Assembly: GCA_965367815.1 (NCBI GenBank)
Contig: CBDUKN010000002.1
Location: forward strand, 64,001 to 128,000
Length of the DNA: 64,000 nucleotides
Reading direction: 5' to 3'
Origin: an uncultured Thermoprotei archaeon
GTDB lineage: Archaea; Thermoproteota; Thermoprotei; Thermofilales; B15-G2
Shown here: piece by piece, positions 12,245 to 29,574 of the stretch
How the letters are laid out: each line of letters opens with the position of its first letter
Numbering within the stretch: position 1 is the stretch's first letter
Position numbers and translations under genes: made by a program
Notes under the pieces: generated by a model
Told to the model about the DNA's origin: nothing
Seen by the model: only the letters and a program-made list of their open reading frames with translations
Database searches by the model: none

Positions 12245-14104
12245 CTATACTTGATTCTTAGAGCGGAAAAATAGAGAAAGCTTTTCTGAGAGTTTCTTCG
12301 GAGAGTTAACAATAAAACAGTCTTCAAGTAACTCCGGTAGAAACTTTCTTATGCTGTCTGTTAGAATCCTTTTGTCTAAAATAACGATTGCCGCTTTGTC
12401 TTTTTCTGAGCGAATAGCTCTTCCTGCAGCCTGCTTTATTTTCATTGCGGCTGGTATCGCAAAAGCATATTCCCAGCCCAAGCTCTTATTAGAGTATTTT
12501 ATTGAAATAAGCTCTTTAAGCTTCGAGTTGAAGATATCGGGTTCAGGGTAAGGTATACCAGCTATAACGACAGTTGATATCATGCTTCCGCTCTTGCTCT
12601 TAATTTCTATACCTTCGACAATTTTTCCTCCAGCTACAGCTAGTACTATTGTTTTGTTTTTTGCCTGAACAGCGTTTACAATATCTTCTATTCTCGTAGA
12701 TTCATCTTCTATTATGAGAGGATTTCCTTTTAGAAGTCTTTTGATGGGTTTAAGGAACTCGTATGAAGGAGTTACTACTAATATAGCTTTATTTTCTGGC
12801 GATACGCTGTATGCCGATAAAATATACTCACACATTCTTTCATACATCGTGTCGCTTCTCTCAGAGTACCTTGAAGTAACATCAGTTGCTACTACCACTA
12901 AACGGTTCTCTCTAGGAAATATCTCTCCTACTCTCTTCTCTCTAACTTTAGCAGAAGGTAAGCCAAGTATATCCGATAAGAATTCTTTTGGCTGAAGCGT
13001 AGCGCTCATTAAGATTCCTGCTCCCAGATTACTAAAGAGCTGCTCTAGTCTTCCTGCAGGACTAATACACCTGTACTCTAGTACTACCTCTCCTTCCTCA
13101 AGTCTCGCAGACAGAACGTATCCTCGCCTAAATTCTAAGAGAGATTTGAGGAACTTTGCTACGTAGCGCACATAGCACCGGCTTTTAGAAACTTTTTCAC
13201 TTTTTCTTTTCTCTATAGTTAAAGCCTCGGCTTCTCTCACAAAAGACTGTACGCTTCTTACTGCTGTCAGAATGTCATCTATGTTTATTGGAACTCCTTT
13301 CTCGTTTATTTTTCTCGAAAGAACTCTATAGAAAGCAAGTAAACGACTACAGTCTCTAGCTAGATCGTAGAAGTGGTATTTAGACGCCTCTTTCTTGGCC
13401 AGCCGCACTAGCCTCATAGGCATTTTGATACTCAACATGTTTGAGAGAGAAGAAGGCAGGTTATGTGCTTCGTCTACAACGAGGACTATTTTATCTAAAG
13501 ATAAACCTGTCATAGAGAAGAAACTTTGCTGTACTTTAGGATCAAATACGTAGGGGTAAGAGCCTATAATTACTTTAGCTCCTAGCTGAACTAGTCTACG
13601 GGCCGCCTCGTAGGGACAAAGATCATCAAAGCGGCACTTCTCTATAAAGTCTACAGGAGTTCGAGCTATTAAACAGTAGTCAAATAAGTCTTCTGGCTTC
13701 AGCTTCAGTACATTTGTCGAGTAGATACATCCTTGCTCTCTTTTCTCTTTACAAAATTCTAGAAATTCTTCGTAGTCCATGTGCTGCGTAGACTCAAGCG
13801 AACACATTTCCTTCTTGCTTCTAAAAAGAGAGTAGAATACATGAACTCCTTTCTTCTGGAGTAGCTTTAATTCTCTGAAGGGAGCCATGGCCTGATTCTT
13901 AGTTCTAGCAGTAAAGAAGACCTTTAGATCACTGTCCTCTATTGCAGACAATACACCGGCTAAAACAGCCGAAGTTTTACCTACACCGGTCGGCGCTTCA
14001 AGTAAAAGTATCTCGCCTTTCTCAACTGCCTTTCTGACAGCTTCAGCTATTTCTCTTTGATACTTTCTCCAAGTAGCGTAAGGAAAGTACTTTTCTAAAG
14101 ACAT
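12245..14104 (-). CDS. xpd: XPD/Rad3 Fe-S DNA helicase
   Basis: FPY...R..Q, EAPTGVGKT, Fe-S cysteines (C..., LCPY), VDEAHNL, MSATL, EGIE, QAAGRAIRS. Confidence 0.9.
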   Translation of the reverse strand: MSLEKYFPYATWRKYQREIAEAVRKAVEKGEILLLEAPTGVGKTSAVLAGVLSAIEDSDLKVFFTARTKNQAMAPFRELKLLQKKGVHVFYSLFRSKKEMCSLESTQHMDYEEFLEFCKEKREQGCIYSTNVLKLKPEDLFDYCLIARTPVDFIEKCRFDDLCPYEAARRLVQLGAKVIIGSYPYVFDPKVQQSFFSMTGLSLDKIVLVVDEAHNLPSSLSNMLSIKMPMRLVRLAKKEASKYHFYDLARDCSRLLAFYRVLSRKINEKGVPINIDDILTAVRSVQSFVREAEALTIEKRKSEKVSKSRCYVRYVAKFLKSLLEFRRGYVLSARLEEGEVVLEYRCISPAGRLEQLFSNLGAGILMSATLQPKEFLSDILGLPSAKVREKRVGEIFPRENRLVVVATDVTSRYSERSDTMYERMCEYILSAYSVSPENKAILVVTPSYEFLKPIKRLLKGNPLIIEDESTRIEDIVNAVQAKNKTIVLAVAGGKIVEGIEIKSKSGSMISTVVIAGIPYPEPDIFNSKLKELISIKYSNKSLGWEYAFAIPAAMKIKQAAGRAIRSEKDKAAIVILDKRILTDSIRKFLPELLEDCFIVNSPKKLSEKLSLFFRSKNQV

Positions 14105-14219
14105 TTTATCGTACCAGCTCTGCAGGGACTCCCTCCTTATTTTGACAGAACATACTGAGTAAAATATCTTATTTAAGGAAATAGATCGCTACTTCAAATC
14201 GAGTAACTAGAACTCGGTG

Positions 14220-15377
14220 TTAAGTAGAAATAAGCGAGTTAAGCCATGCAATAAGCTTTTGGTAAGCAACTATCCTTGGTACAGCTTTTGCTCCAGGAGG
14301 CCCTGGCTTCTTCATGTAAAACGCATTCACCTCGTATACAGTGCCATATAGCCTCCTATCTAGAGCTATTTTAGCTAAACGTACTAAGTCAACAAGCAGC
14401 CCTGCAAGTGCAGGACTATCATTTATCCTCATATTCACTGTAATTTCGTCGACGAGACCATTGAATGTAATGTACTCGAGGTTGAGTGAAACAAATTTTC
14501 TGTCACCTAAAGGCTCTAAGTACCCCGTGGGCTTAATGTACGTAGGCACTTTGTATTCAAGAATATCTTCTACAACACTTGTTTTCGTGGTTTCTTTTGC
14601 TTTATTTCTCCTACTATCAGTTAGAGCTAAAAAGTCCGTATTCCCACCTATATTGTACTGAACAATGTATCTTACTCTCCTGTTCCTTTCCTTCAAGTGC
14701 TCAACTAAATCTGAGGTAAATGGAGTTGCTCCAGTAGCACAGTCGTCGCCAAAAATAATCATTCCGGATTGCCGGCAGAGCTCTAGGAAAGCCTCGTCGT
14801 TTGCTAGCAGCACAGGAATAGCATTAATGAAAGCTATAGGCTTGACTTTCTTTGAGTATAGGTAAGCTATGTAAGCATAGACTTGAGTAGCGGTCAAAGA
14901 CTCTAATTTATTCTCCACTATCGCTTTCTCTAACTCCTCTGGGCTGCCAAATACTTGTCCATGCTCAGTAGTAATCGTATTCACTACGACATCCGGCTCT
15001 AATTCCTTCCACTCAGCTAGAATTCTATCTACTGCTTCGCCAAGCCCCTTCTTCTCCTCGAGTCCATGTGCTTTAACAGGCATGCCACGTAAACTACCTA
15101 AATGTACTCCTCTTCTAATAGTAATTTTCTTAAGAGACTCGGGTACAGGAACACTGCCACCTACTAGCTTCTCCGCGACGTCATACACTGTTTTACCTAC
15201 TTTATTTTCATCAACATCATATGATGCAACAATCTCTATGTCAGAAATCTTGTAACCTAAATCGTACTCTGCTAGCGGAACACCAAAAGGCTCTATTTCT
15301 CCTAACTTTATTCTCTCGACACCCACAGAGAAATGGGAAGCACCCATACCCTGCCCTAAGACAACTACTCTGATCAT
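14220..15377 (-). CDS. ino1: myo-Inositol-1-phosphate synthase
   Basis: Rossmann G.GM.A, GDDCATGAT, QYNIGGNTDF, NDSPALAG, AFYMKKP. Confidence 0.9.
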   Translation of the reverse strand: MIRVVVLGQGMGASHFSVGVERIKLGEIEPFGVPLAEYDLGYKISDIEIVASYDVDENKVGKTVYDVAEKLVGGSVPVPESLKKITIRRGVHLGSLRGMPVKAHGLEEKKGLGEAVDRILAEWKELEPDVVVNTITTEHGQVFGSPEELEKAIVENKLESLTATQVYAYIAYLYSKKVKPIAFINAIPVLLANDEAFLELCRQSGMIIFGDDCATGATPFTSDLVEHLKERNRRVRYIVQYNIGGNTDFLALTDSRRNKAKETTKTSVVEDILEYKVPTYIKPTGYLEPLGDRKFVSLNLEYITFNGLVDEITVNMRINDSPALAGLLVDLVRLAKIALDRRLYGTVYEVNAFYMKKPGPPGAKAVPRIVAYQKLIAWLNSLIST

Positions 15378-15424
15378 GTTACCACCCTATTTTATGAGAA
15401 TAAAATATTTATGAGTATATAAAA

Positions 15425-16138
15425 CTATGCTTTGATGTATCCGCAGTTTCTACACTTATACTTCTTCTCAACTTCATCCCAGTGCAAACGATGAAAACAT
15501 CGAGGACAAGAATACTCGCCTACTTCCAAAACTCCATTAAGTTTAAGAATCTTTTTAACTAAGTACTCAGTCTCGCCTGTAAGCTTAGCAATCTTCTTTA
15601 TACTATAACCTCTATTATAAAGCTCTATTATAAACTGTTTTTTATCTTCATCTATTTTATCGTATTTTCTTCTCCGAGCAATCTTCTCTTTAACATCAGG
15701 TCTCTGCAAAGCAAGCCTAGTTCTCTCACGAATCAAGTATACTTCATACTGAGCAACCCAAGCCAAAATAGCTATAATAAGGTCTCTTATCTGAGGATGC
15801 ATAATATGAGTAAACTCTTCTCTAACACTAATAACCATAATACCTTTTCTCTCGAGAGCACTCATTGTAGAAAAGATATCTCTAAAGCTTCTCCCAAGTC
15901 TATCAAGAGAATAAACCAGGAGAATTTTTATATTCGGGTGTTGCTCAAGAAAAGCTAATGCCTCCTTGAAGCGAGGACGCTCAACAGCAGAAATACTGCC
16001 AGAAATATCTTCCTCGAACTCTTTCACTATACTAAATCCTCTCGATTCAGCAAACTTATGTACAGTAATCTTCTGCTGCTCTACACTCTGCTCCTCAGTA
16101 CTCACACGATAATATGCAATACACAGGCGCTGAGACAT
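15425..16138 (-). CDS. Serine recombinase (resolvase/invertase) with HTH and C-terminal Zn ribbon
   Basis: YYRVST..Q catalytic motif, SG, RP.F, LDRLGRS, ERT; CPRC...CRNC. Confidence 0.88.
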   Translation of the reverse strand: MSQRLCIAYYRVSTEEQSVEQQKITVHKFAESRGFSIVKEFEEDISGSISAVERPRFKEALAFLEQHPNIKILLVYSLDRLGRSFRDIFSTMSALERKGIMVISVREEFTHIMHPQIRDLIIAILAWVAQYEVYLIRERTRLALQRPDVKEKIARRRKYDKIDEDKKQFIIELYNRGYSIKKIAKLTGETEYLVKKILKLNGVLEVGEYSCPRCFHRLHWDEVEKKYKCRNCGYIKA

Positions 16139-16368
16139 TCTCCTTTAACACACGTTAGAGAAATATAGGTCTTTAGCGCCAATACCCCAACTATTACAGA
16201 AGACCATTAGAAAACTGCCTCACCATCGGTACATATGGTCAAAATGTAGCAAAATAAATTATTCTATACAGAAAAACACTACATTCTACTACATACACAA
16301 AAAGAAAACTGTTCTCTAGATAGAACTAAAAAACAAATATTTTAAACAAAGATACAGTAAAACATGAT

Positions 16369-16905
16369 ATGAGCAAAACAGTTTTCACTATAGCTATCAT
16401 TATCTTAGGTGCCGTAGTATTACTAGTCATCGGAGGTATAGCAGTAGCTCTTCTATTCACACAAACATCAACACAGCCCTCGACAAAAACAGTAAACGAA
16501 AAAATATGGACTATAAAAATCTACGATTTAGAAGGAAAAGCTGTAGATCTAAGTAAATACAAAGGCAAAATACTAGTAATAGACTTCTTCGCAACATGGT
16601 GCGGACCATGCGCAAAACAGCTTGAAGAACTCAAAAAACTTCTAGCTAGCCGCAGCGACGTACACATAGTTTCCATAAGCATATCTCCCGGTACAGATAC
16701 TCCAGAAAAACTCAAAAAATATGTAGAAGACCATAAAATAACATGGCCAGTTTACATAGATAAGAATAGAAGCATGACCAAACTATTCAGTATAAGCGCG
16801 GTTCCAACACTAGTAATAATAGGCCCTAGCGGAAAATACATTATACGAGTAGGGCTCACAAATCATAAAACCTTAAATGAACTAATAAACAAGGTTAAAG
16901 ACTAA
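16369..16905 (+). CDS. Membrane-anchored TlpA/ResA-like thioredoxin
   Basis: TM anchor, DFFATWCGPC, cis-Pro VPT. Confidence 0.88.
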   Translation: MSKTVFTIAIIILGAVVLLVIGGIAVALLFTQTSTQPSTKTVNEKIWTIKIYDLEGKAVDLSKYKGKILVIDFFATWCGPCAKQLEELKKLLASRSDVHIVSISISPGTDTPEKLKKYVEDHKITWPVYIDKNRSMTKLFSISAVPTLVIIGPSGKYIIRVGLTNHKTLNELINKVKD

Positions 16906-17131
16906 CTTAACTTTCCAAGAAACCTCTCCTACAAAAGGTATTCAACTATCCTTAATTCAATATCCTAATGAAGAACATGCAAAAGTATCTCAAGAAACTC
17001 CTCCTCCCTATTTTGGACACGAATAATAATTTTCGTCAAAGAATATTCATTAAATAGCTAAAATACTTTATATTTCTTAATAATAAGCCATATAATTAAA
17101 TATTTAAGCTCTAAAACACAAATTTTAATAT

Positions 17132-17585
17132 ATGAATAGAAAGTTTATAGCTATACTCATAGTAGCTCTACTGATAGCAATAGTATTCCTATACACACAT
17201 ACGAACTACTTTTCATTAAAAACATTTTCTTCTAAATCTAAAAAATAAATCATGCAAATATGAATTAAAAGAATTAAAGAAATTATTATCATAATTCAAT
17301 AATATTTACATAGTTTCAATCGATGTAGCACCTGCTGTAGATCCTCCTGAAAGATTAATGAAATACATTAAAGAGAGTAATATAACATGGCCAGTTTACA
17401 TAAATAAAAAAGGAGATTTAGTGATATTGTTCAAAATAGCTGCATTACCGACATTAGTGATTATAGAACCTATAGGAAAATATGTAGTCAAAGTAGGTTA
17501 TGTAGAATATAGTGAATTAATAAAATGTATTAATTATGTTAAGGAATATAATAGAAATAATTATTTTTGGCATTATTTTGAGTGA
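17132..17585 (+). pseudogene. Degenerate tandem paralog of the TlpA gene
   Basis: Signal-anchor ORF 17132-17248 stops early and the CxxC segment is missing. Downstream IVSIDVAPAVDPPERLMKYIKESNITWPVYI...LPTLVII aligns with the C-half of 16369-16905. Confidence 0.7.
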
Positions 17586-17784
17586 GAATATTGTACTCAC
17601 TTAAATAGATGTCCTTCGTTTTTCCTAAAAGAGTGAGTAGGGAGGTCCTCGCTTCGAGGTGCATCGGGCTTATTTAAATTTAATTGAATTATTTTTAAGA
17701 TACTTTTATAGTTTAGAATACTGTTATTTATCTTAGAGCCCTGAGTCGCCAAACATATTATTTGAGCATATTTTCTTTCGCGTA

Positions 17785-18675
17785 GTGAGAATAGCTGCTG
17801 TTAGCGACATTCATCACCCGGCTTCAACTATTCTAGTTAAGCTGGCTCAAGTACTGCGTAAGAGCGAAATCGACTTAATTGTTTTCGCAGGCGATGTAGT
17901 GAACTGGGCCGATGAGAAGTACTTCAAGAAGCTGTTGAAATTTATTAGAAGATTCTTTAAAGGGCCTCTTTTAGCTGTTTCAGGCAATCATGAGCACTGG
18001 CTTAGCGGTAGAGAAAAGAGAAGGGGGTTAACTAGTATCGAGAAGCTGAACAAGCTAGCTAAGCTTTACGAAGAATATAACGGAGTACTACTAGATGTAA
18101 AGGGTCCCTGCAGAATAGGAGACCTGTATGTTGTAGGTGTAGTAGGCTGGTATAACTATAGTTATGCTCAAGGTTTAGGGTTTACTGAGAAAGATTTCGA
18201 GAACTGCAATCCTTGAGGCTATAGTCTCCACAAGCTTGAAATAAAGGAGAAACGGGGGATAGGCTCTTGCCCATCGTGGTTTAGAGACTGTCTGTACGTG
18301 GAACTGAGTATGTCTGCTAGAGAATATGCTGAACTAAATGCGAGAAAGCTTAGAGACCAATTGGTCCGCGCGGGATCTCGTAGAAGTATTGTCATGCTTC
18401 ATCACTGTCCTCGAAGAGACCTCATTAAGTACACGGGTAATCGTTATGAAGACTTTTACTTAGCTTATGCGGGTCACCAGAAATTAGACGATATTATAAG
18501 GAGCTGTGGGAAAGTTTTCCTAGTGATTTATGGTCACTTACATGAAAAAGCTCTTGAGCCTACAGCTCAGAAGAATGGACTTACTTATGTTAATCCCTAT
18601 CCTCTGTACCCCTTGCTGAACAGGAAGATAACTCTGATTGAAGTTGATGAATATAAGGGAAGGTATTGTCTATAG
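17785..18675 (+). pseudogene. Metallophosphoesterase interrupted by one in-frame TGA (18214-18216)
   Basis: SDIH, GD and GNHE before the stop, HH.P and GHLH after it. ORFs 17785 and 18298 share a frame with no other stop between them. Confidence 0.75.
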
Positions 18676-18737
18676 AATTTGTGTAGACTATTTCGTAGGG
18701 ACAGGTTTCGAAGATCTTAAGTAGCGCACTTAAAGTA

Positions 18738-19613
18738 ATGTATTTTGGTGGATTCATGGATTATCTGATTGTAGACACTTATCCCGGTTTCGTGCTCGCT
18801 TTATGTGAGAATCCGGGTAAGTCTCCGCTGGCTACATGGGAGGAGTTTTACAGCAAAAAATTTCCTAAAATTTATGAGCTTCAGATAGGTAATTACGGGG
18901 AAAATTGGAGAATTTTTGCTGAGAAATATGTTTTCTCGAAATTTACTTCATGGTTTCCTAAAACTAGCCGCGTTTGGAGAAATCTACTATCAGTAATACC
19001 TTATGCTTACAGAGAATTCGCTAAGTCCTGGAGGAATAGACTAGGCGTCGTTTTTGTGGTTTATGTGGGGATAGGATGTGGTGCTGGCTGGGCAACGGAG
19101 TACAGGGGGAGAAAAGCTGTTTTACTTGGACTAGAGAACATAGTAGATTTGAATTGGTGTAGTTTAGAGGATTTACGTGGCCTGATAATACATGAGCTAG
19201 CGCACTTAATTCACATGGAGTTGAGAGGCCTATCTGCTAGGGAATTCGAAAAACTTGAATCGGATCCCCTGTTTCTGCTTTATAGTGAAGGATATGCGAC
19301 ATATATTGAAGAAGAGCTGACGGGAAAAGGTCTTGCTAGGATAGCTTCAGATAATAGCTGGCTGAACTGGTGTAAGTGTCATTTAGGTTTTCTTTCAAGA
19401 AAATACTTAAGTCGGATAGAGTCTGGTAAGCCTGTAAATGATTTCTACGGCTCCTGGCTGAGTATAGAGGGGAAGAGCCAGACCGGCTACTATCTTGGAT
19501 ACGAGTTTATCAAGTACTTAGCGCGTAAAACTTCTTTAAGAAGCATAGCGGTGTTGAATGTCAAAAAGATAAAAGAAGAAGCGATGTGTTTCCTAAGAGC
19601 TCTCGCCAATTAA
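18738..19613 (+). CDS. Predicted Zn-dependent protease (DUF2268-like)
   Basis: HELAH zincin motif, SEG.A, GYYLG. Confidence 0.7.
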   Translation: MYFGGFMDYLIVDTYPGFVLALCENPGKSPLATWEEFYSKKFPKIYELQIGNYGENWRIFAEKYVFSKFTSWFPKTSRVWRNLLSVIPYAYREFAKSWRNRLGVVFVVYVGIGCGAGWATEYRGRKAVLLGLENIVDLNWCSLEDLRGLIIHELAHLIHMELRGLSAREFEKLESDPLFLLYSEGYATYIEEELTGKGLARIASDNSWLNWCKCHLGFLSRKYLSRIESGKPVNDFYGSWLSIEGKSQTGYYLGYEFIKYLARKTSLRSIAVLNVKKIKEEAMCFLRALAN

Positions 19614-19644
19614 AGAATAAATAGCCTTAGATAAAATACTAGTT

Positions 19645-19704
19645 GGGGCGATGAGGAAGCGCTGTCCCCATAAGACCGGTGAAGCCCCTCCCCCTTTGCC
19701 GAGC
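19645..19704 (+). ncRNA. Possible degenerate box C/D sRNA
   Basis: GC-rich island; C-like GCGATGA 19648-19654, D-like CCGA 19699-19702, poor internal boxes; guides AAGCGCTGTCCCC and CCCCTCCCCCTTTG. Confidence 0.4.
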
Positions 19705-19745
19705 CGATGTAAGCGGCTGTATGTTCATTGTTTCGCTTAAGTAGC

Positions 19746-19800
19746 TGAGTGATGACCGCACGCGGCACTGAAGAGTGACGAGTACCAAACCGGCTGACTT
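19746..19800 (+). ncRNA. Box C/D methylation guide sRNA
   Basis: C GTGATGA 19749-19755, 12-nt guide CCGCACGCGGCA, D' CTGA 19768-19771, C' GTGACGA 19775-19781, 12-nt guide GTACCAAACCGG, D CTGA 19794-19797. Confidence 0.85.
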
Positions 19801-19852
19801 CTATGCTCACCCATGGAACTAGTATTGTACTTGACTTTACTAGATGGCTTTC

Positions 19853-19969
19853 TCCTTTATAGAGGATTGTGCTGATACATTTTTATTTCCCTGTAAAGGA
19901 TATATTAGCATATGAATATTCTCCTCTATAGGGGTGAATAATTATGGAGTTTAATTCCTCTAGAGAGGG
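19853..19969. repeat. Array of four 14-bp palindromes (consensus TCCTCTATAGAGGA), 34/35/34-bp period
   Basis: TCCTTTATAGAGGA 19853, TTCCCTGTAAAGGA 19887, TCCTCTATAGGGGT 19922, TCCTCTAGAGAGGG 19956. Confidence 0.75.
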
Positions 19970-21404
19970 TATAAGAGTTCGTGTTTTAGATTACATTAGG
20001 CGTCTCCTGGTTACTGCTCCTCATAAGGCGCTCTTGTACACGCGCCGAGGTAGACAAGAGCTTCCTTACAGATGGATTTTCTATAGACTAGTAAGCTACG
20101 CTCGTAGTTTTGCTGAAGGCTTTACTGAGAATAGGCTGATCATGATACCCGGTTTGAGGGGTACTGGGAAGACTACTGTTTTGTGGCAACTGTACAGGTA
20201 TTTAGTTGAGGAGAAAAAAATTAAACTAAAGTATGTTTTATTTCTGCCTGTTGACGAACTTAAGACACTTGTTGGCGGAGATATCTATGAAGCTGTTAAC
20301 TGTTATGAAGAATTACTGGGAAGGCGTCTGGAAGAGCTAGATAGACCTGTATTTCTTTTACTCGACGAGATTACTTATGATCCTAAATGGCCTTCAGCAG
20401 TTAAGGCTATTTACGACAGATCTCCCATGGTATTCATAGTAGTCTCGGGCTCATCTGCTCTTGCTTTGCAAATGACCCCAGATTTGGCCCGCAGAGGGAT
20501 TAGAGAAATTCTTTATCCGATGAGCATGGCCGAGTACTTAATGCTTAAGTACAACAAATATCTGCAGAAAAATTTCATAAAGCGCCTCAAGGCTGCTCTT
20601 TTCGAGACATTTTCGCCCGAAGAAATGCTTGAAAAGCTAGAGATTTTACACCGAATGCTAATGGCTATAGACCTCGACCTACGTACTTTAGTTAGCAGTT
20701 ATCTTAAGTTTGGAGGCTTACCTTTTACTATGCATGGCGACGAAATTACCTACGAACAAGTTTACGATGTAATTGAAAGAGTAATTAACAAGGATTTTGC
20801 AGCAATATATAAAATGAAAAGTGAAACTAGAGAACGAACAGCTGCTCTACTAGCTGGGCTCTCTACACATCCACCAGGACCTCTTTCAATATTAAGTATA
20901 TCGAAAAGCTTAGGAATTAAGTACGATACTGCGAGAAAAATTCTTCAAGCATTAGAGCACTCCCTAATTCTATACTCAATACCTCCTTACGCAAAAGGAC
21001 TAGCTCAAGCTAGAAAACTGCGTAAATACTGCTTCTCTACACCAGTGATACGTGCTGCACTAGCTTTTCGCTTAGGCTGGCCTCCAGAGGATCTTTTAGG
21101 CGCAATGCTAGAAGATGCTGTGCTTTCTACACTTATACGCCTTAAGGCTACATATCCTAAAATAGTGGGCGTTCATTACGACCCGAAAGAAGGAGGTGCA
21201 GACGCAGTAGTAGAGGTACGTACAGGTAAAGGAACGATAAGTGTACCATTAGAAATAGAGTGGGGACTGAAAGATGGACGGCAAGTAAGGAATACTATGA
21301 AGCATACGTCGTCTTCTTACGGAATAATAGTCGATGATGTAATTAAACCTGAATTAGACAAAGACGTCATTCATGTACCTAAATACATATTTCTTCTGCT
21401 GTAA
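19944..21404 (+). CDS. COG1373-type AAA+ ATPase (AAA_14 + HTH + DUF4143)
   Basis: GLRGTGKTT, LLLDEI, SGSS, YLKFGGLP, HTH (ISKSLGIKYDTARKIL..LE), G.MLE, AD.V....PLEIEWG; GGGGTGA RBS. Confidence 0.85.
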   Translation: MEFNSSREGIRVRVLDYIRRLLVTAPHKALLYTRRGRQELPYRWIFYRLVSYARSFAEGFTENRLIMIPGLRGTGKTTVLWQLYRYLVEEKKIKLKYVLFLPVDELKTLVGGDIYEAVNCYEELLGRRLEELDRPVFLLLDEITYDPKWPSAVKAIYDRSPMVFIVVSGSSALALQMTPDLARRGIREILYPMSMAEYLMLKYNKYLQKNFIKRLKAALFETFSPEEMLEKLEILHRMLMAIDLDLRTLVSSYLKFGGLPFTMHGDEITYEQVYDVIERVINKDFAAIYKMKSETRERTAALLAGLSTHPPGPLSILSISKSLGIKYDTARKILQALEHSLILYSIPPYAKGLAQARKLRKYCFSTPVIRAALAFRLGWPPEDLLGAMLEDAVLSTLIRLKATYPKIVGVHYDPKEGGADAVVEVRTGKGTISVPLEIEWGLKDGRQVRNTMKHTSSSYGIIVDDVIKPELDKDVIHVPKYIFLLL

Positions 21405-21440
21405 AGTAATCATTAGAAAAGCATTAGCAGTCAAACTTTC

Positions 21441-22331
21441 TTACTTCAGTAAGTATTTTTGCAAGATCGCTATATCTTCTAGTATGTGCATGTCGCAAGG
21501 TCTCTCTATGATAACGCTGCCTTTATAACCTTCTTCTGCTACTGCTGCAAATACTTTGGCGAAGTCTACTGTCCCTAAGCTTAATGGATTGTGGTCGTCA
21601 CGTTCCCCATAATTGTTGTTTACATGAATATTTACTACAAATTTAGATACTTTTCTGAAGAATTCTTCTGGCCTCTCATAAGATAGATTTGCGTGACCCA
21701 CATCGAACGCTACTTTGAGTGCAGATGAGTTTACTGCTCGAAGTATTTGAAGCAGTTCTTCGCTACTTCTCCCAAAATGCGATGAAACTAGCTTTTGGCC
21801 ATGTTCTATGTGGAAGTAATCCATGTTTTCTAAGGCTAGCAGCACTTTTCGCCTAGCTGCATAAGAAGCTATTTTCTTTAAATTAGCTGTCATAGCCTTG
21901 AAGGCTTCACGGTATTCTAGTAACTTTTCTACATGCCGTGACGGCTCATAGTTTGAGAAGCTGGGCTTGAAGTAAGCAGGGTGAATTGTTATGATATGTA
22001 TATTGTTATTTGAAGCTATCTCAATTATTGAGAATAGTTCTTCGAGAACTTTTTTACGTACTTCAGGGTTTCTGTAGGCTAGTTTTACTGAATTTTCTAC
22101 ATCATGTACTTGTATACAAATATTACTGTAGTTTAGTTTACCTAATACTTTTAGCAGTTTTCTTAAATCGCTGCTGTCTTCTATGCAGAACTCGTAGCAT
22201 CTTATATTAAGATTAAGTAGGCGATCTAATATATGTTTAGTTATTTTGAATAGCTCGTCTATATTGAGATTTTTAAGTTTCTTATGGTATATTTTTTCAT
22301 AGGTTTCTGTAACCATTACTCCTATTATCAT
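21441..22331 (-). CDS. Sugar phosphate isomerase/epimerase (xylose isomerase-like TIM barrel)
   Basis: TIHP, LALENM, FDVGHA, IHVNNN...DDH, GTVDF, IIE. Confidence 0.82.
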   Translation of the reverse strand: MIIGVMVTETYEKIYHKKLKNLNIDELFKITKHILDRLLNLNIRCYEFCIEDSSDLRKLLKVLGKLNYSNICIQVHDVENSVKLAYRNPEVRKKVLEELFSIIEIASNNNIHIITIHPAYFKPSFSNYEPSRHVEKLLEYREAFKAMTANLKKIASYAARRKVLLALENMDYFHIEHGQKLVSSHFGRSSEELLQILRAVNSSALKVAFDVGHANLSYERPEEFFRKVSKFVVNIHVNNNYGERDDHNPLSLGTVDFAKVFAAVAEEGYKGSVIIERPCDMHILEDIAILQKYLLK

Positions 22332-24947
22332 TGTTTCACTTTAAGGCTTACCGTAATTATTTCGAAGGGTTTCGCTTCAATAGAGACAGTATTCTCGTCG
22401 ACTTTAAGTTCCTTTATCTTTTCTTCAAGTAGATTTGTTTCATTTGCTGCCTCGATTTCCTTGAAGAAAGTTATTTTGCCTCTGGTTTTTCTGCCTTCTG
22501 CTTCGTAGAAGCGGAGTACTACTTCATTTCCTTTGAAAGACTTCTTGAGGGCTACTAGTACTAGGTTTTCGGGAAAGAGTTTTAGAAAGCTGTATTCTTT
22601 TAGTAGTTTTCCTTTGTGTTTTGTTGTTTTCAGGGGTATGAGGGGATTGTTGAATTCGAGAGCTACTTTATATGATTTTGCCTCGCGCCATGATTTCTCA
22701 TGTGGGTATAGAGAATACTCGAATACGTGGTATCCTTTTTCTAGTGCCTTTGGACCCATTTCGTAGTAGATATAGTATTTGCCTGATCTTTCTAGGTAGG
22801 CTTTGGCTAGTTTTATTAATCTGAGCTGTCCTATGGGTGCTGAGAGGTACATAGCGTTAATGCTTCTTAATAGAGTTAGTATTAGCGTGTTTTCGACTAC
22901 GCTGTTTCCCGGGATACCTTTATTGATTAAAGTAACTCCGTAGTCGTTGTTCGAGTAGTCTACCCAGTTTACTGCGGGGTATTCTCCTTCGCTTCTTTTT
23001 ATTGCTCCGTAAGGTATTTCATGCCATATTTCACCTTTCTTGATGTTTACTGGAAAAACTACTCTCAGTCTCTTGTTTTCGTCTCCGAACTCTATTTCCG
23101 TTATGAAGTCTATTCCTTTGACTTTGTCGTAGATTATGGTGAGCTGAGTGTATTTGCTGTTTCCGATAACACCTTTTGAAACCATTACTGCTCTTACGGG
23201 GCCTTTTTCGGCTATTATTCCCTGGGGAACACACATGCTCGTGTTAAGTGTTGTTGGGTTCGGCGGGTCTTTAATAGGAGTTACTACCTGGTGAGCATCT
23301 ATGTCGCCGTTTATATTGCAGACTGACCCGTAGTCAGGCTCCATGAAAATGGTGTTCGCAAGATACTTGCTGCAGTCTAGTACCTCTCTTTTCGCTTCCT
23401 TATCGTATATACTGACAATATTCTTTGATAGTGTATCGAAACTTATTTTAAAGTATTGATTTTCTATAATATATTCGCCTTCTTTTTCGGATACTTTAAT
23501 ACTGGTTTCATATATTCTATTCGAGGGCGCCTCTGCTGACTCTATGTAATATGTTTTGTAGCCTAAAGGCGGCACATTTTCCACTATGAAAGCTATTTTT
23601 ACAGTATTTAATGTCCTGTCGGGATTTCTTCTAGCTTCAATTATTTGTGAAGGTATTTCTTTTCCATTGGAGTCTATTACTTTTAATGTTTTTGCTTTAG
23701 GCCCGCATACAGCTATGTTTACGTAAACTACGTCAGTTCGCGTCCAGGCTAAAGGATTGAATACTACTACTGGTATCTCTCCTTTTTCTGACTGTGTGTC
23801 TATTAGCGATACTATTGACTTAAGTGCTTTTGTTAGTACTTCGCGACAGATACTTTCTGCTGTTTTATAGTTTTCCATTATTTTGTCGTAGACTTCGTCT
23901 ACTACTTCACCGTTTATAGCGTCGTGGAACTGGTTCATTAGAATTAGTTTTAGAGCTTTCTCAAGCTGTTCTTCAGGGTAGTTTTCTCCGAGAACCCATG
24001 TTATAGTGGCGCATTTTTCTGCCGTAAGATAAAGGTTTTCTACCTTTCTGTTAGCTTTCTTTATTTCAATTCTAGTGCTATATGTTCCTCTGAAAATAGG
24101 ATTGAATTCTCCTTTAATTACAGGCAGTTTGCTTGAGTCTTTTTCTAGTGATTTAAAGTACTCGCTTGCAGTAGCGATAGATATCTGCCAGTTTCTCCTG
24201 CGTCTTTTCCATTCCCTTACAATCTCGACTATTGAGCGTTGAGGCGGAGAAAAGTCATCTCCATTGAGTAACATAATGTTTTCCGTGGGAGCTACTTTAC
24301 TTATTTCTCTAGCATTGTTTTCTAGGAAAGATATTGCTCTGTCTATATCGAAAGAACTTATGAGGTAAAAGTATCTTAGCTCTCCTTGAGGCACATAGCC
24401 TGAACTATATCCTAGGAGCGCGATACGTAAGTATTCTAGTGCCGTCGATTCCTTCCCAGAAGAAGTCGCTGGGCATGTTTTTGAGAGCTCCTCGCTAGAA
24501 AACAAAGTACTTTACTCCAGCTTTCCTGAATATTTGAGGACGCTGCGCAGACTGACCATAAACATCAATAAACCAGCCGCACTTAGCTTTTGTACTGAAA
24601 TTCTCTTGAATATACTTTTGGAAAATAACGATATTTCTTGCCAGGAATTCTCCTGAAGGAATATTGGAGTCAGGCTGAGTATAGCCGGAGCAAACGAATT
24701 CTATTAGCTTACTTTCTACAGCTTTCTTGAATTTCTCTACAAGCTCAGGATATTCTTCTACAAATTTTTCAATATAAATTGTTTGATCTAAATTAAATTT
24801 ATACTCATGGTTTTTCTCGAGAAACTCTAGCAGATCTACTATATTTTCTACGGTTATCTTAAAATACTCCTCAAAAGACAGCTGCCAGAGAGCGTCAAAG
24901 TGCCAGTGAGGAATAATGAATATTTTCAGTTGCTTGTTTCCCACCAC
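22328..24947 (-). pseudogene. GH38 alpha-mannosidase, disrupted by an in-frame TAG (24497-24495) and a frameshift (about 24415)
   Basis: HWHFDALW and GWFIDVYG in the 5' ORF. Past the TAG the same frame reads RGALKNMPSDFFWEGIDGTRI, then shifts into the frame carrying GDD, GTYSTR, NQFHDAI.G and VFNPL.W.R. Confidence 0.8.
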
Positions 24948-25185
24948 GTTTAAAGAAGTTTACTTGAGAAATATATCATTTAAAAGTCTTCTGCTAGAGT
25001 ATCATAAATAATAACTCCCTCTAGGACTATGACTATAGCCTTTTCGGCCTAGTTATCAAGTAAACCACCTAGTAAGCTTCTACTCTACTCACGTACCGAA
25101 ACGCTCCAATCACTATCGTTAAACTCAAATATAGTAAGTTACGCGGAAGTTCTTCGACAAAAATTTAACTGAAGCAGAAAACTTA

Positions 25186-26103
25186 GTGATAGTGTCCTCT
25201 GTATCAGAGCATGAAATACTTAACGCCGTAGCAAAAGCTAGAGAAATCGCAGCTGGATTGCTCATAACAGAGTTTCATGAGAAGTGCAGAGAACTAGATA
25301 CACTTCTAAGTAAAATATTAATGCTTATTGGTAAAATAAAGTCAAAGTATTCTATAGAAGAAATTGACGCTGGATTTAGTATTAATAAATTGATTGAAAA
25401 AGGATCTATAAAAGAATACGTTTTAGAGCTAGATCCTAAATGCTTTATTAGTCTTAAAAAAGTATTTAAGCTATATAGTTTAGGCAAATTATCGGGATTA
25501 GAGTTTTTTGATAGAGTAAGAGCAGCTATAAGGCTTTCTTTAAATATAAAGGAGAGAGATCTATATCAGATGTTTGTATTTCTTTCTCTGCTGCTGTACT
25601 TGAAGGCCGATATCCTTAAGCCGTCTTCTAAGCTAATTTTAGAGAGAAGAACATTACCTAGGAAAATTCCAGCTACAGTAGTTCTAGCTACTGCCGACGG
25701 GAAGTATATGAGCATTTTTTATGAAGCACTTAGACCTGTTAAAGGAAGCGGCATACCGCGCTATAGACCTGACTTAATGATCTATAGCAGACTAGTCCCT
25801 GAGATAGCTTTTGCTAATAATAGAGTATATCCCTCACCTGATTACATAGTTGAAGTAGAGTCAGGATCTAAATGGTTTGAGAAAGAGAATGCCAGAATAT
25901 GGGGAAAAATTTCTAACATAGAGCTTGTTAGAAACTATATTGAAGTATTCAAGCCTCATAAAATGATACTTGTTTCTCGAGTAAAAGTTCCTTCTAGTAT
26001 CCGTGAAGATTTGGCTGAATACAGTGTTGTGCTGATTGATGGAGTGCAGTACAATTACCGTTTTATAGGAAAGGAATTAGTGCGAATTTTTGAGCAAACT
26101 TAA
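25186..26103 (+). CDS. Hypothetical protein with a C-terminal PD-(D/E)XK nuclease-like fold
   Basis: RPDLMIY...PDYIVEVE. Confidence 0.55.
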   Translation: MIVSSVSEHEILNAVAKAREIAAGLLITEFHEKCRELDTLLSKILMLIGKIKSKYSIEEIDAGFSINKLIEKGSIKEYVLELDPKCFISLKKVFKLYSLGKLSGLEFFDRVRAAIRLSLNIKERDLYQMFVFLSLLLYLKADILKPSSKLILERRTLPRKIPATVVLATADGKYMSIFYEALRPVKGSGIPRYRPDLMIYSRLVPEIAFANNRVYPSPDYIVEVESGSKWFEKENARIWGKISNIELVRNYIEVFKPHKMILVSRVKVPSSIREDLAEYSVVLIDGVQYNYRFIGKELVRIFEQT

Positions 26104-26541
26104 GAGTAGTTTTGCTACATAGCTATCTTTTTCTCTGTAGAGAGTATTTAGCCGACTAGTAAGTACTTTTTTCTTTTCCTCTGGTAGTGCTCTAAGAAGA
26201 GCTTTAATCCACTTTAAGCACTTTTCATCGCAGTTTACAGCATTCTTTAGGGTCGTTTTAGATACCTTTATCCCTACTTCGCGAAGTGCATCGAGCACTT
26301 CTTGGTACTCGTTTTTGTATGCTAAGTACTCGTAGTCCTCAAGGTGCAGTTTATGCCTACATAACTTACGAAAATTTTCTATAGCACAAGTACTTAGAGG
26401 GAATCTATACTCTTTTGAAATATAGACCCACTCATGGTAGCACTCTATGCATAGACTTATAGGAATTTCTTCTCCTTCCTCGCTTCTGAGTAGCATTTTT
26501 CTCGAAGCTCTACGCCGAGAACAACAAAGACATCTATTCAT
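26077..26541 (-). CDS. Hypothetical Cys-rich (Zn finger) protein
   Basis: CLCC...CIEC at the N-terminus; upstream TATA. Confidence 0.6.
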   Translation of the reverse strand: MNRCLCCSRRRASRKMLLRSEEGEEIPISLCIECYHEWVYISKEYRFPLSTCAIENFRKLCRHKLHLEDYEYLAYKNEYQEVLDALREVGIKVSKTTLKNAVNCDEKCLKWIKALLRALPEEKKKVLTSRLNTLYREKDSYVAKLLLSLLKNSH

Positions 26542-26623
26542 TACATTTTTCTTGAGTGCAGTAGTTATATAAAACTAGCTTACAGCTTAAATCACATTAA
26601 TTAACTTCTACTCTAAATAATCT

Positions 26624-27361
26624 ATGAAGATGATTGTAGAGATAATTTCAACAGGAAAAGAGCTTCTAGTAGGAGAAGTAGTAAACACTAATGCCGTGTG
26701 GATTGCTAAAAGACTAACTCTCAAGGGTTTTACTGTAAGAAGAATTATAGTAGTTGGAGATAGCATTGAGGAAATAAGTAGTGCTTTAGAAGAATCTATG
26801 AAACGAGCGAATTTAATAATTTTGACAGGCGGTTTAGGTCCTACTTCCGACGATGTTACGCGCGAGGCTGTAGCGCAAGTGCTCAAACGCAAGCTAGTGT
26901 TAAGCAAAGAAGTTTTTGACTATATTTTACGTGAGAGAAAATGTGGCTTGAAGGCTACCGAAAAAATGTCCTATGTAATTGAAGGATGCTACATAATATT
27001 CAACAAAGTAGGCTCTGCGCCGGGAATGATCATAGAACACGACTCTAAAATAGTAGTCTGCCTACCAGGTCCTCCCCACGAGCTCAAATCTATGTTTCCT
27101 GAAGTAGAAAAATATTTGGAAAAATATTCTGCTGAAAAGTTATATGAAGAAAGAATTAGAGTAAGCGGTCTCCCTGAGATCTCTGTTTTTGAAAAAATAT
27201 ACTCTATTGCTAAAAAATATCCTAAGATATATTTTAAGACTAGAGTACTTAATAGCGGAGAAGTAGAAATATATTTACTTGGAAAAGAAAGCGATATTGC
27301 TAAGGCATCTAATGAGATAAGAGAGCTTCTTAAAGGATATATTAAGTCTTCGCCCTCTTAG
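26624..27361 (+). CDS. cinA: CinA-like molybdopterin-binding domain protein (no PncC domain)
   Basis: G.ELL.G.VVNTN, TGGLGPT.DD.T, N.VGSAPG, LPGPP.E. Confidence 0.85.
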   Translation: MKMIVEIISTGKELLVGEVVNTNAVWIAKRLTLKGFTVRRIIVVGDSIEEISSALEESMKRANLIILTGGLGPTSDDVTREAVAQVLKRKLVLSKEVFDYILRERKCGLKATEKMSYVIEGCYIIFNKVGSAPGMIIEHDSKIVVCLPGPPHELKSMFPEVEKYLEKYSAEKLYEERIRVSGLPEISVFEKIYSIAKKYPKIYFKTRVLNSGEVEIYLLGKESDIAKASNEIRELLKGYIKSSPS

Positions 27362-29486
27362 ATACTTCTCTACGTATTTCCTCTATTTCTTCGAGTATAT
27401 CCGTAATATCTACTTCGATTTTTTCGTGTTTTCTTGCTTTAATAGCAATATACAAAATTGCGATAATAGATAAAGCGGAAACTGTTATTAGAACAATATT
27501 TTTGCCCGTTGCTTCTTCGGTAGTCTCACCTTTATGGTACCCTGTTGGCACGAACTCTTTAACTGAAAATAGACGTGGAAGAACTAGCTCTAAAGAAAAT
27601 GCTGTTGAGTACTCTGCGTCAACGGGAGATTTACAAACATCTAATTCTACGGAGGGGTTAGAGACGTTAAGAAGAATTATTTTTGTGTCAACAGCGTTTC
27701 TGAGGACACTGCCATTGCTTAACGGACATATTAGAACAGATGTTTCCATAGTGTAGATACTGGCTTCTTCTGATACTGTTTTGTTCTCAGATGTAGCAAC
27801 AATAATTTTACTCGAGCTTTTAATCACCAGTCCATAGATAGTGTTCTCTGTTTTCACTACGATACCTTTTACAGTATTATTAATAGCCACTATTTCTATT
27901 TTCGGCTTCTGCTCAGCACTTTCTGAGAGTATTTCAAGAGAGTACTTGTAGTAAAGGTTCCACTCCGCGTAAGCACATTTTCTTATTTTTTCTAGATGAT
28001 CTTTTGTTTCAGTTAAATTATTTAGCTTATTTTCCATAGTTGAGAGTTGTTTTAAGCTTGAATTAACTGTTCTCACTAAAGTTTCTGAAATATTGTAGAG
28101 AACAAGAGACAAATTTATGTTAGTATACCCTATTAAGTTAATAGACGATGATAATTTAACAAAACCCTGCCCGGCTTCTTTAAGCTTATCTGCGGCCTCT
28201 TCTCCTTCTTCAATAGCTCTGTTTATTGAAGACACCATTTTTTTGAGTTTCTCTACCTCTTCAAATAGTTCTTCTTGATTTTGGCTTAGTTGCTCAATTA
28301 AAGTCTTTAAGCCTTCTAAAAGCTGTATTATTGTTTCGTTTTGAGGATATATCTTCTTCAATGTATCGATTGCCTCTTCTAGTGAACTTATTACTTCATT
28401 GTAATCTACTTCACTTGACTCTAGAGCTTTCAGTACTTCACTTATTTTATTTAATGTAGCTGAAGCATATGAGATAGATCCTTTAAATGACTTAATAAGT
28501 GACTTCATCTCTTCTGAAGCTTTTATTAAGTTTTCTCCAGAATCCTTAAGAACACTTGATATTTTAAGAAGCGAGTAACCAGTGTTATTCAACACAGTAG
28601 ATATATTGGCCAATCCTTCGGCAAGCTTAAGAGAAGCATTTATGCCTTCTTTCATCTTACTGACAATTGACGATAATCCTTCGATATACTCGTTCAGTCG
28701 ATTCATTATTTCCTCTACTCTTTCAGCAACTAAATCAGGTCTGTCGATAACTTGTATCGATATGCGTTTGAGGGGTACTTCACCCCAAGGGTTTACTTCT
28801 TCTACTTTTGCTTTAAAACTCAGGCTTATATTGTTATAGAGAGTAATCATCCAGACGTGCATTCTCTCGTCTCCGATCATAATTGTAGAGTTCGGCTGTG
28901 GACTAAGCGATAAAGGCTTAAGGTATGAAGGAAAGTTAAACATTATGATTAAGTTCAGCGGTAACCTCAAGTAGCTGTTTTCGCAAAGCCATCTTTTCTT
29001 CGTATTCACTAAAGTAATATTGAGTGAAACTATTTCTCCTACTTCTACTTTAACATAGTCTACACCATTTCTTTCAATAATTTCTGCTCTGCGTCCATTA
29101 ACTGATATTTCGACAGAGTAGTTTATCGGAGGAGGAGTAAAAAGCCTCGCTGAATATTTTATATTAGTTGGAAGCTTTAAGCGCTCCCAAATAAGCTTCA
29201 AGTAGCGGCCATAATACTTTATTGAAGAAGGCTTAGGTGAGATTTCTAAAATATCTTGAGGAGAAACAAACCATATCCTATCTACAATAGTGCGAAAGCC
29301 TGTTCCCTCAATAGTTATCTCCACATCTACTTTCCACTCCTCTATCTTACCATTAAGTCCGAGTATACAATAGTACTCGACCTTCTTCATTACATGGATT
29401 TCTTGAGAAGAAGTAGCTATAGTCTCGACTTTGAAGAAAATAATAAGAATTAATTCTGTAAGAAATAACGCCAGAACTTTTCTCAC
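27342..29486 (-). CDS. Large secreted, C-terminally anchored protein with a long central coiled coil
   Basis: Signal peptide, beta-rich N-domain, about 250 aa of heptad helix, C-terminal TM, many N-x-S/T sequons. Confidence 0.7.
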   Translation of the reverse strand: MRKVLALFLTELILIIFFKVETIATSSQEIHVMKKVEYYCILGLNGKIEEWKVDVEITIEGTGFRTIVDRIWFVSPQDILEISPKPSSIKYYGRYLKLIWERLKLPTNIKYSARLFTPPPINYSVEISVNGRRAEIIERNGVDYVKVEVGEIVSLNITLVNTKKRWLCENSYLRLPLNLIIMFNFPSYLKPLSLSPQPNSTIMIGDERMHVWMITLYNNISLSFKAKVEEVNPWGEVPLKRISIQVIDRPDLVAERVEEIMNRLNEYIEGLSSIVSKMKEGINASLKLAEGLANISTVLNNTGYSLLKISSVLKDSGENLIKASEEMKSLIKSFKGSISYASATLNKISEVLKALESSEVDYNEVISSLEEAIDTLKKIYPQNETIIQLLEGLKTLIEQLSQNQEELFEEVEKLKKMVSSINRAIEEGEEAADKLKEAGQGFVKLSSSINLIGYTNINLSLVLYNISETLVRTVNSSLKQLSTMENKLNNLTETKDHLEKIRKCAYAEWNLYYKYSLEILSESAEQKPKIEIVAINNTVKGIVVKTENTIYGLVIKSSSKIIVATSENKTVSEEASIYTMETSVLICPLSNGSVLRNAVDTKIILLNVSNPSVELDVCKSPVDAEYSTAFSLELVLPRLFSVKEFVPTGYHKGETTEEATGKNIVLITVSALSIIAILYIAIKARKHEKIEVDITDILEEIEEIRREVSKRAKT

Positions 29487-29574
29487 AGTATAGCAATATT
29501 TATACCTTCTATTAAGTCTTACTTTTCTGTAGTTTTTCCTTTACTAATATAGATTTTAACTGAATATTTTAAGT

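Follow-up and report, generated by a model that had tools for sequence, protein, structure and literature searches.

AAA+ ATPases of the initiator and STAND (signal transduction ATPases with numerous domains) part of the superfamily are nucleotide-switched oligomers that often read repeated DNA boxes. PDC-S01, a single-gene system in which an ATPase is fused to a PD-(D/E)xK-like domain, is an unvalidated defence candidate according to the accessible part of PMC12988326. The DUF4143 domain is entered as 'Unknown' in the table available from PMC3424549, and a DUF4143-related restriction endonuclease is mentioned as an effector domain in the available part of 10.64898/2026.10.19.760177. One PDC-S01 member was challenged with T7, T5 and T4 in E. 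coli B and was not one of the four candidates that gave protection, according to the available part of 10.1101/2024.09.26.614923. Literature searches on DUF4143, COG1373 and PDC-S01 found no operators or autoregulation of the family in the accessible portions of the sources, with preprint supplements outside their scope. The main text of Payne et al. (10.1101/2024.01.29.577857) contained none of the terms PDC-S01, AAA_14, DUF4143 and COG1373, and its supplements may define the family. Here, a 64,000-nucleotide stretch of DNA from an uncultured Thermoprotei archaeon (contig CBDUKN010000002.1, positions 64,001 to 128,000; hereafter the window) was analysed, in which four regularly spaced palindromes lie over the promoter region and the start of a PDC-S01/COG1373 gene. 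These palindromes are probably a private operator array at which the gene's own protein would control its own gene by self-binding autoregulation.

Direct reading of the window showed four near-palindromes with a 6-2-6 dyad (TCCTYT-NN-AGRGGA), start-to-start steps of 34, 35 and 34 bp and spacers of 20-21 bp between the 14-bp copies (Table 1). Their positions and spacing, the overlap of copy 3 with a GGGGTGA sequence and the location of copy 4 within codons 5-9 had been described in an earlier note on this DNA, and all were confirmed together with an open reading frame (ORF) of 486 aa. Copies 3 and 4 overlap the Shine-Dalgarno (SD) sequence and codons 5-9, respectively; overlap of the array with a TATA box and a transcription start hinges on the predicted promoter. 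A repeat search returned copies 1, 3 and 4 as a direct family, with copy 2 paired to copy 1 as an inverted repeat. Matches to TCCTYTNNAGRGGA with at most one mismatch fell on the four copies only in the window (6 strand-matches), and 100 shuffles of the window gave a mean of 1.75 strand-matches, with 2/100 reaching 6. In the whole genome (2,447,095 bp), 39 places matched the motif with at most one mismatch on either strand and only the four array copies were ≤300 bp from each other, which makes the array the only such cluster. About 4e-8 such clusters would be expected under uniform placement, a figure that is too small because the motif was defined from the array copies themselves, and that leaves the uniqueness of the cluster unaffected. 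The stricter motif of the earlier note, CCTYTATAGRGG, occurred three times in the genome, twice within the array.

A close ortholog of the gene was found in one of 60 genomes of relatives (G041, same class, another family, 72% identity), which indicates a patchy distribution. The G041 locus retains all four sites in register, with identities of 9/14, 10/14, 11/14 and 11/14 for copies 1 to 4. Identity amounted to 41/56 over the sites, 19/41 over the first two spacers, 14/20 over the spacer with the SD sequence and start, and 22/63 upstream of copy 1. The similarity extends from copy 1 to the stop codon, and no flanking ORF is in common; the unit common to both genomes is exactly the array plus the ORF. 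The arms are retained in G041, and the centres of copies 1 and 3 are changed from AT to GC (TGCA), which argues that these centres are not TATA boxes. The centres of copies 2 and 4 are without this change. A concerted change of the centres was considered as evidence and dropped, since copies 2 and 4 do not follow and it is one comparison only.

Profile scans with an alignment of near relatives as query gave 80 metagenome and 80 genome loci from archaea and candidate phyla radiation (CPR) bacteria with 30-43% identity, whereas a contig scan with the single protein as query gave 61 pattern matches, none of which was confirmed. A total of 151 usable upstream regions were clustered into 43 non-redundant groups, and direct 10-mer matches of at least 9/10 were recorded between -170 and +50. 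Repeats at lag 34 were found in 19/43 representatives and at lag 35 in 6/43, with further counts of 3/43, 7/43 and 3/43 at lags 68, 69 and 70 and at most 2/43 at any other lag; these per-lag counts may overlap. Overall, 23/43 upstream regions had repeats at lag 34/35, and 25/43 when lags 68-70 were added, with site sequences that are unrelated to one another. Gene-specific phased palindromes upstream of relatives, which the earlier note had proposed to look for, were thus present. The control gene bodies showed lag 34/35 in 0/43, and shuffles gave approximately 0.5 per lag. Of the upstream regions taken from the neighbours of the gene at these loci, 3/107 showed it, which differs from the family with a Fisher p of 2e-12, a value that is overstated as the representatives are related.

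The position of the sites relative to the start codon was also similar among relatives. Their sites begin at about -57 to -64 and -23 to -30, with extra sites near -92 and +8, and those of the window begin at -92, -56, -23 and +11. Three loci with 41-43% identity (L009-L011) have three palindromes each of approximately 20 bp, spaced 35/35 or 35/34, with the last one overlapping the start codon; these palindromes are unlike those of the window (e.g., ATGTTAAT-NNNN-ATTAACAT and ATGTTTCCTATAGGAAACAT). No ORF family (≥50 aa, blastp 1e-5) was common to more than 2 of the 43 loci. The genome of the window also has six distant paralogs with 25-31% identity, located at C6:51517(+), C7:75105(+), C10:75063(+), C10:21325-21780(-), C28:13052(+) and C32:4107-4532(-). 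The best repeat was at lag 34 in all six, mostly bracketing a TATA-like box. Together with the window's gene this makes seven PDC-S01 genes, four of which (the window's and three paralogs) reach a score that was reached by 27 of 1474 ORFs. Genome-wide, there was no excess at lag 34/35 compared with lags 29/30 or 40/41. The boxes of the C10(+) paralog are at -1 and +33 of the first TTG, which suggests that its true start is probably further downstream. As a separate observation, three CPR relatives (L023, L033 and L047) have a promoter-operator block approximately 110-140 nt upstream of the start, and two extra hairpin-like palindromes (e.g., GAAATAATCAAA...TTTGATTATTTC) lie between this block and the gene.

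The gene is an ordinary PDC-S01 member. AAA_14 (PF13173) scored 71.9 bits at aa 63-199 against a Pfam cut-off of 27, and DUF4143 (PF13635) scored 31.0 bits at aa 284-429 against a cut-off of 28.1, which supports the COG1373 AAA+/DUF4143 identity given previously. The PADLOC PDC-S01 model PDLC04787 matched with an E value of 8e-27, and five further PDC-S01 models also matched. Public calls of the gene and of its ortholog begin at M67 and give a protein of 420 aa, leaving out a 66-aa N-terminal segment (19944-20141). These first 66 aa align with relatives called at full length and their codons show mostly synonymous differences from the ortholog, which indicates that the 486-aa form is real and that copy 4 lies in codons 5-9. 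The 420-aa call probably stems from the overlap of the array with the true start. The Walker A and B motifs are intact; G70, G73, G75 and K76, as well as D141 and E142, were invariant across 120 subfamily sequences.

An AlphaFold2 model built on the 120-sequence alignment had a predicted local distance difference test (pLDDT) score of 96.3 and a predicted template modelling (pTM) score of 0.93. It is made up of a long N-terminal helix, an AAA+ core, a helical linker, a winged helix and an alpha/beta nuclease-like domain. The modelled winged helix comprises helices at 293-307 and 316-323, a recognition helix at 327-339 (nt 20922-20960) and a wing at 343-364. The exposed positions 326-328, 331 and 332 were the most variable of the winged-helix domain and are hypervariable in the family (120 sequences). 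In this model, the gene product has a canonical winged helix, which is a predicted sequence-reading DNA-binding domain. The best Foldseek neighbours in the PDB were Apaf-1, ORC/Cdc6, MalT, SSO1545, DnaA and NLR (nucleotide-binding leucine-rich repeat) resistosomes, with E values of 2.3e-8 for 2qby (the S. solfataricus Cdc6/Orc1-origin DNA complex), 4.4e-7 for 2v1u and 1.4e-7 for MalT 8bob; 1fnn was also matched. These neighbours belong to the initiator/STAND part of AAA+. At the sequence level no Cdc6/ORC Pfam match was found, and a PDB sequence-profile search gave nothing significant (best E 0.018, an SRP54 chain), so that the protein is not an Orc1/Cdc6 member by sequence. A homodimer prediction (two copies, 120-row alignment) gave a score of 0.00 with a mark of 0.42 and was used neither for nor against dimer formation.

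The promoter region is AT-rich, and copies 1 and 3 have TATA at their centre. An A(A/G)(G/A)ATATAT element between copies 2 and 3, the putative transcription factor B recognition element (BRE) and TATA box, is retained in G041, as is GGTGAATAA at the SD sequence. A transcription start approximately 25 nt past the putative TATA box would lie inside copy 3.

These results make self-binding autoregulation the most likely reading. The gene's own winged helix is the parsimonious predicted reader of the palindromes, since the sites vary among relatives but accompany the gene, since their cluster occurs nowhere else in the genome and since no neighbour is conserved. The gene is the only conserved candidate binder, because no ORF family was shared by more than two of the 43 loci. 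Array and ORF are one cassette, inherited and transferred together. The self-docking on phased sites that the earlier note had proposed passes the comparative test, with the binding itself still a prediction. The identity of the binder, the dimer stoichiometry, the cooperativity, the sign of regulation and the position of the promoter are likewise what we infer from the sequence. On each 6-2-6 palindrome, a dimer of the gene product would dock by means of the winged helix. The centre spacing of 34/35 bp (approximately 11.7 nm) would let adjacent dimers touch, and a 110-kDa dimer could span that length. The contacts between dimers would presumably be made through the AAA+ modules and would possibly depend on the nucleotide state. 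In this way, two to four dimers would form a cooperative coat of approximately 115 bp, with copy 2 at the BRE/TATA flank, copy 3 over the ribosome-binding site and transcription start, copy 4 over the first codons and copy 1 as an outer site. As a result, the gene would be repressed by its own product, and the ATPase-nuclease would be held at a low and buffered level.

Several observations weigh against this reading. Copy 2 is a degenerate site that fits best on the minus strand with one mismatch and has a single good half-site, AAAGGA. The promoter and transcription start were placed from sequence alone. In G041, the codon aligned to the ATG is CTG, and the exact start and the relation of copy 4 to translation are uncertain there. 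The start codons of the fetched loci were set by a heuristic, the representatives are related as stated above, and at the strict threshold 20/43 representatives were without a lag-34/35 repeat and 18/43 without any of lags 34/35 and 68-70. Covariation between the recognition helix and the operator, evaluated by a partial Mantel test of operator similarity against recognition-helix identity given the rest of the protein, gave mixed results. With best-window identity, the observed value was reached by 431/2000 permutations for 9-mers, 446/2000 for 14-mers, 271/2000 for 16-mers and 75/2000 for 18-mers, and these versions were not significant or marginal; the metric is weak because AT-rich operators saturate it. 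When operators were described as 6-mers repeated within a locus and compared with the five exposed helix positions, operator similarity followed these positions beyond overall relatedness, which speaks for self-binding (partial r 0.147, reached by 26/5000 permutations); this clearer result came after several tries, and only four pairs share at least three words in it. The window gene and G041 were outside the covariation set, as the best lag score of each fell short of what was needed for entry. Among individual loci, L058, L088 and L143 have a common helix signature S-P-T..R and the half-site TATAC(A), and L065 and L142 have S-S-(K/R) and TTTAC..GTAAA in common. L088 is overall nearer to L119 (0.63) and L131 (0.60), whose operators differ. 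Overall, the covariation was mixed, being weak and dependent on the metric.

Table 1. Positions of the palindromes, the predicted expression signals and the parts of the PDC-S01/COG1373 gene in the window.
Feature	Position	Strand	Description
Palindrome copy 1	19853-19866		TCCTTTATAGAGGA, TCCTTT-AT-AGAGGA; outermost upstream site
Palindrome copy 2	19887-19900		TTCCCTGTAAAGGA; minus strand TCCTTTACAGGGAA, TCCTTT-AC-AGGGAA; abuts putative BRE/TATA
Putative BRE/TATA	19895-19907	+	AAAGGATATATTA, between copies 2 and 3; from sequence and conservation in G041
Palindrome copy 3	19922-19935		TCCTCTATAGGGGT, TCCTCT-AT-AGGGGT; overlaps SD and putative transcription start
Shine-Dalgarno-like sequence	19931-19937	+	GGGGTGA, 6 nt ahead of ATG; overlapped by copy 3
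PDC-S01/COG1373 gene	19944-21404	+	486 aa; N-terminal helix, AAA+ ATPase, winged helix, PD-(D/E)xK-like domain
Palindrome copy 4	19956-19969		TCCTCTAGAGAGGG, TCCTCT-AG-AGAGGG; within codons 5-9
Walker A	20151-20174	+	G70-T77, GLRGTGKT
Winged-helix domain	20820-21035	+	aa 293-364; predicted from AlphaFold2 secondary structure
Nuclease-like core	21162-21284	+	aa 407-447; D420, E437, K443, Q447; from column counts in 120 sequences

The nuclease-like domain carries E437-I-E439 at the ExK site, as had been noticed earlier. The conclusion drawn from it at the time, that the nuclease may be inactive, was not supported. In the 120 subfamily members, position 439 (+2) is G in 100/120 and K in 3/120, while D420 (117/120), E437 (120/120), K443 (108/120), Q447 (118/120) and E390 (118/120) are conserved columns. 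Judged from this alignment, the norm of the subfamily is E-V-G-x-G-x-K in place of ExK, and EIE would therefore be no sign of inactivity. The lysine of this norm, K443, lies six residues past E437. For annotation, a lost ExK is not to be taken as an inactive nuclease in this subfamily.

A more ambitious possibility, which we regard as rather unlikely, is that the phased array and the ORF form a self-contained nucleoprotein switch. The protein would polymerise in 34-bp steps on its own promoter and be parked there in an inactive state, until an invader or a nucleotide change strips it off, which would induce the gene and let the active oligomer act on DNA. If this were true, the array would act as both sensor and safety catch for a defence candidate that is among the commonest of those still untested. 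It could also delimit a minimal transferable unit, as the similarity to G041 spans copy 1 to the stop codon. The related rival explanation, in which the array is primarily the resting platform of an ATP-driven sensor-effector and phased dimers hold the nuclease-like domain idle, is unlikely. On this view, the assembly would break up on a trigger (competing foreign DNA, a viral factor or a change of nucleotide state), giving derepression and active protein, and autoregulation would be a by-product. Archaea and CPR bacteria share the 34/35-bp phase and the start register although their promoter types differ, and this strictness points to a rigid assembly of higher order more than to plain occlusion. 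The fold neighbours are switch-like oligomerising NTPases (Apaf-1, MalT, NLR resistosomes and Orc1/Cdc6), the putative active-site residues are conserved, and the family is listed as a defence candidate (PADLOC; accessible part of PMC12988326). However, the neighbours of the gene in the window are housekeeping genes and not a defence island, the one PDC-S01 gene placed in E. coli B was not among the four protecting candidates in the available part of 10.1101/2024.09.26.614923, and the present results do not separate such a platform from plain autorepression.

It is improbable that the palindromes are operators of a different, host-encoded regulator. Palindromes flanking a TATA box are usual for archaeal repressors, and the arrangement by itself would fit one. 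However, the site sequences are wholly different among relatives while phase and register are kept, and the cluster is unique in the genome, which leaves no regulon for such a regulator. In addition, no neighbouring ORF is conserved, the similarity to G041 is limited to the array plus the ORF, and each transfer would call for a new host regulator. A role of the repeats in the transcript, as 5' leader hairpins controlling translation or stability, is very improbable. Copies 3 and 4 would be in the mRNA if transcription starts at the predicted position, and some relatives have palindromes with 7-8-nt arms and 4-6-nt centres that are able to fold. In contrast, the arms of the window's palindromes are 6 nt with a 2-nt centre and would form a 5-bp stem at best, and copies 1 and 2 are upstream of the putative TATA box. 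The CPR relatives have one repeat between TTGACA and TATAAT-like boxes that therefore cannot be transcribed, and a fixed 34-bp lag is without obvious meaning for RNA. Finally, there is next to no chance that the copies are a chance match or merely TATA-like promoter words, as the TATA centres of copies 1 and 3 in an AT-rich region could suggest, given that the cluster is unique in the genome, that the G041 centres of copies 1 and 3 read TGCA with the arms kept, and that the family shows the lag more often than any of three controls.

The sequence upstream of the array also contained features of its own. An Rfam scan of the window found nothing at the gathering score, and a permissive scan gave C/D-box models at 19745-19800 only and nothing on the array. 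Directly upstream of the array, a candidate archaeal C/D-box small RNA (sRNA) was located at 19745-19800 (+), with the layout GUGAUGA, 12-nt guide, CUGA, UGACGA, 12-nt guide and CUGA; its best Rfam model in the permissive scan was sR7, with 25.6 bits against a gathering score of 37 and an E value of 8.4e-4. Between a DUF2268-like ORF and this candidate, the stretch at 19640-19740 is GC-rich (0.49-0.55 against approximately 0.38 around it) and is without an Rfam or tRNA match, with ARAGORN returning 0 genes on 19000-20200. The segment 19644-19676 recurs with three differences inside an otherwise unlike contig of 8770 nt from run X1. The GC-rich stretch may be a small conserved RNA.

The locus was also carried by contigs of hydrothermal-vent metagenomes; a search for RNA runs covering 19600-21500 found none. 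The contig found in runs X1, X3 and X5 covers 19600-20083 with five differences, two of which are at 19822 and 19832, and the others at 19856 in copy 1, at 19936 in the SD sequence and at 19967 in copy 4, the last being synonymous. This contig contains the array and the first 46 codons and continues with unlike sequence after 20083. In run X4, a 97%-identical strain is without a listed difference at 19926-20006, and a contig of this run joins 20022 to 21046 with eight other letters between. Natural populations thus vary at this gene, and some forms retain the array without the ORF; nothing further is concluded from this; metagenome stretches without cover and runs with a small share were not counted as evidence. 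Elsewhere in the window, a GH38 alpha-mannosidase is present in two ORFs, 22328-24505 (-) and 24495-24947 (-), with an 11-nt overlap; the 150-aa ORF contains the N-terminal portion of Glyco_hydro_38N and the 725-aa ORF contains the remainder, and the split could be a frameshift, a pseudogene or recoding. A serine recombinase with a Resolvase N-terminal domain (2.7e-32) was found at 15425-16138 (-) among housekeeping genes.

Regular spacing is also a property of plasmid iterons and of clustered regularly interspaced short palindromic repeats (CRISPR). Iterons are direct repeats, typically approximately 22 bp apart, at an origin, and in CRISPR many repeats of ≥23 nt alternate with spacers of about the same length and cas genes lie nearby. 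The window has instead four 14-bp palindromes with spacers of 20-21 bp over a promoter, and no Cas family was found with Pfam in the 17 ORFs scanned (12245-30702), which agrees with the dismissal of CRISPR in the earlier note. The operators of toxin-antitoxin systems and of restriction-modification C proteins are palindromic, located on their own promoter, carried along with the module and different among relatives. Their binder is a small dedicated repressor, whereas the only conserved candidate in the window is a 55-kDa ATPase-nuclease with a phased array of two to four sites. MalT (8bob), a fold neighbour, is a nucleotide-switched oligomer reading several repeated promoter boxes. It activates other operons and has a LuxR-type helix-turn-helix, sensor repeats and no nuclease domain, whereas the predicted target of the window's protein is its own promoter.

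Orc1/Cdc6 on origin boxes (2qby, 2v1u) has the same order of AAA+ and winged helix and, as an ATP-binding reader, occupies several dyad-containing boxes. In contrast, the window's sites are on the gene's own promoter with a fixed spacing of 34/35 bp, and the protein has an extra nuclease-like domain. No marked skew switch was seen in the composition of 18.5-21.5 kb, with no dedicated origin analysis made, and the fact that unrelated genomes have the same array together with the gene speaks against an origin of the chromosome. Overall, a known kind of gene is combined here with a feature that was not found in print, a phased private operator array. Compared with other PDC-S01 members, the subfamily of the window gene differs by the 66-aa N-terminal extension and by E-V-G-x-G-x-K for ExK. 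The accessible parts of the papers on PDC-S01 give the family no DNA target, regulation or function, whereas the window gene has a putative operator array. This putative short, gene-specific DNA target would be the first concrete biochemical handle on the family, with a predicted assembly step of 34/35 bp that is conserved from Thermoprotei to CPR bacteria.

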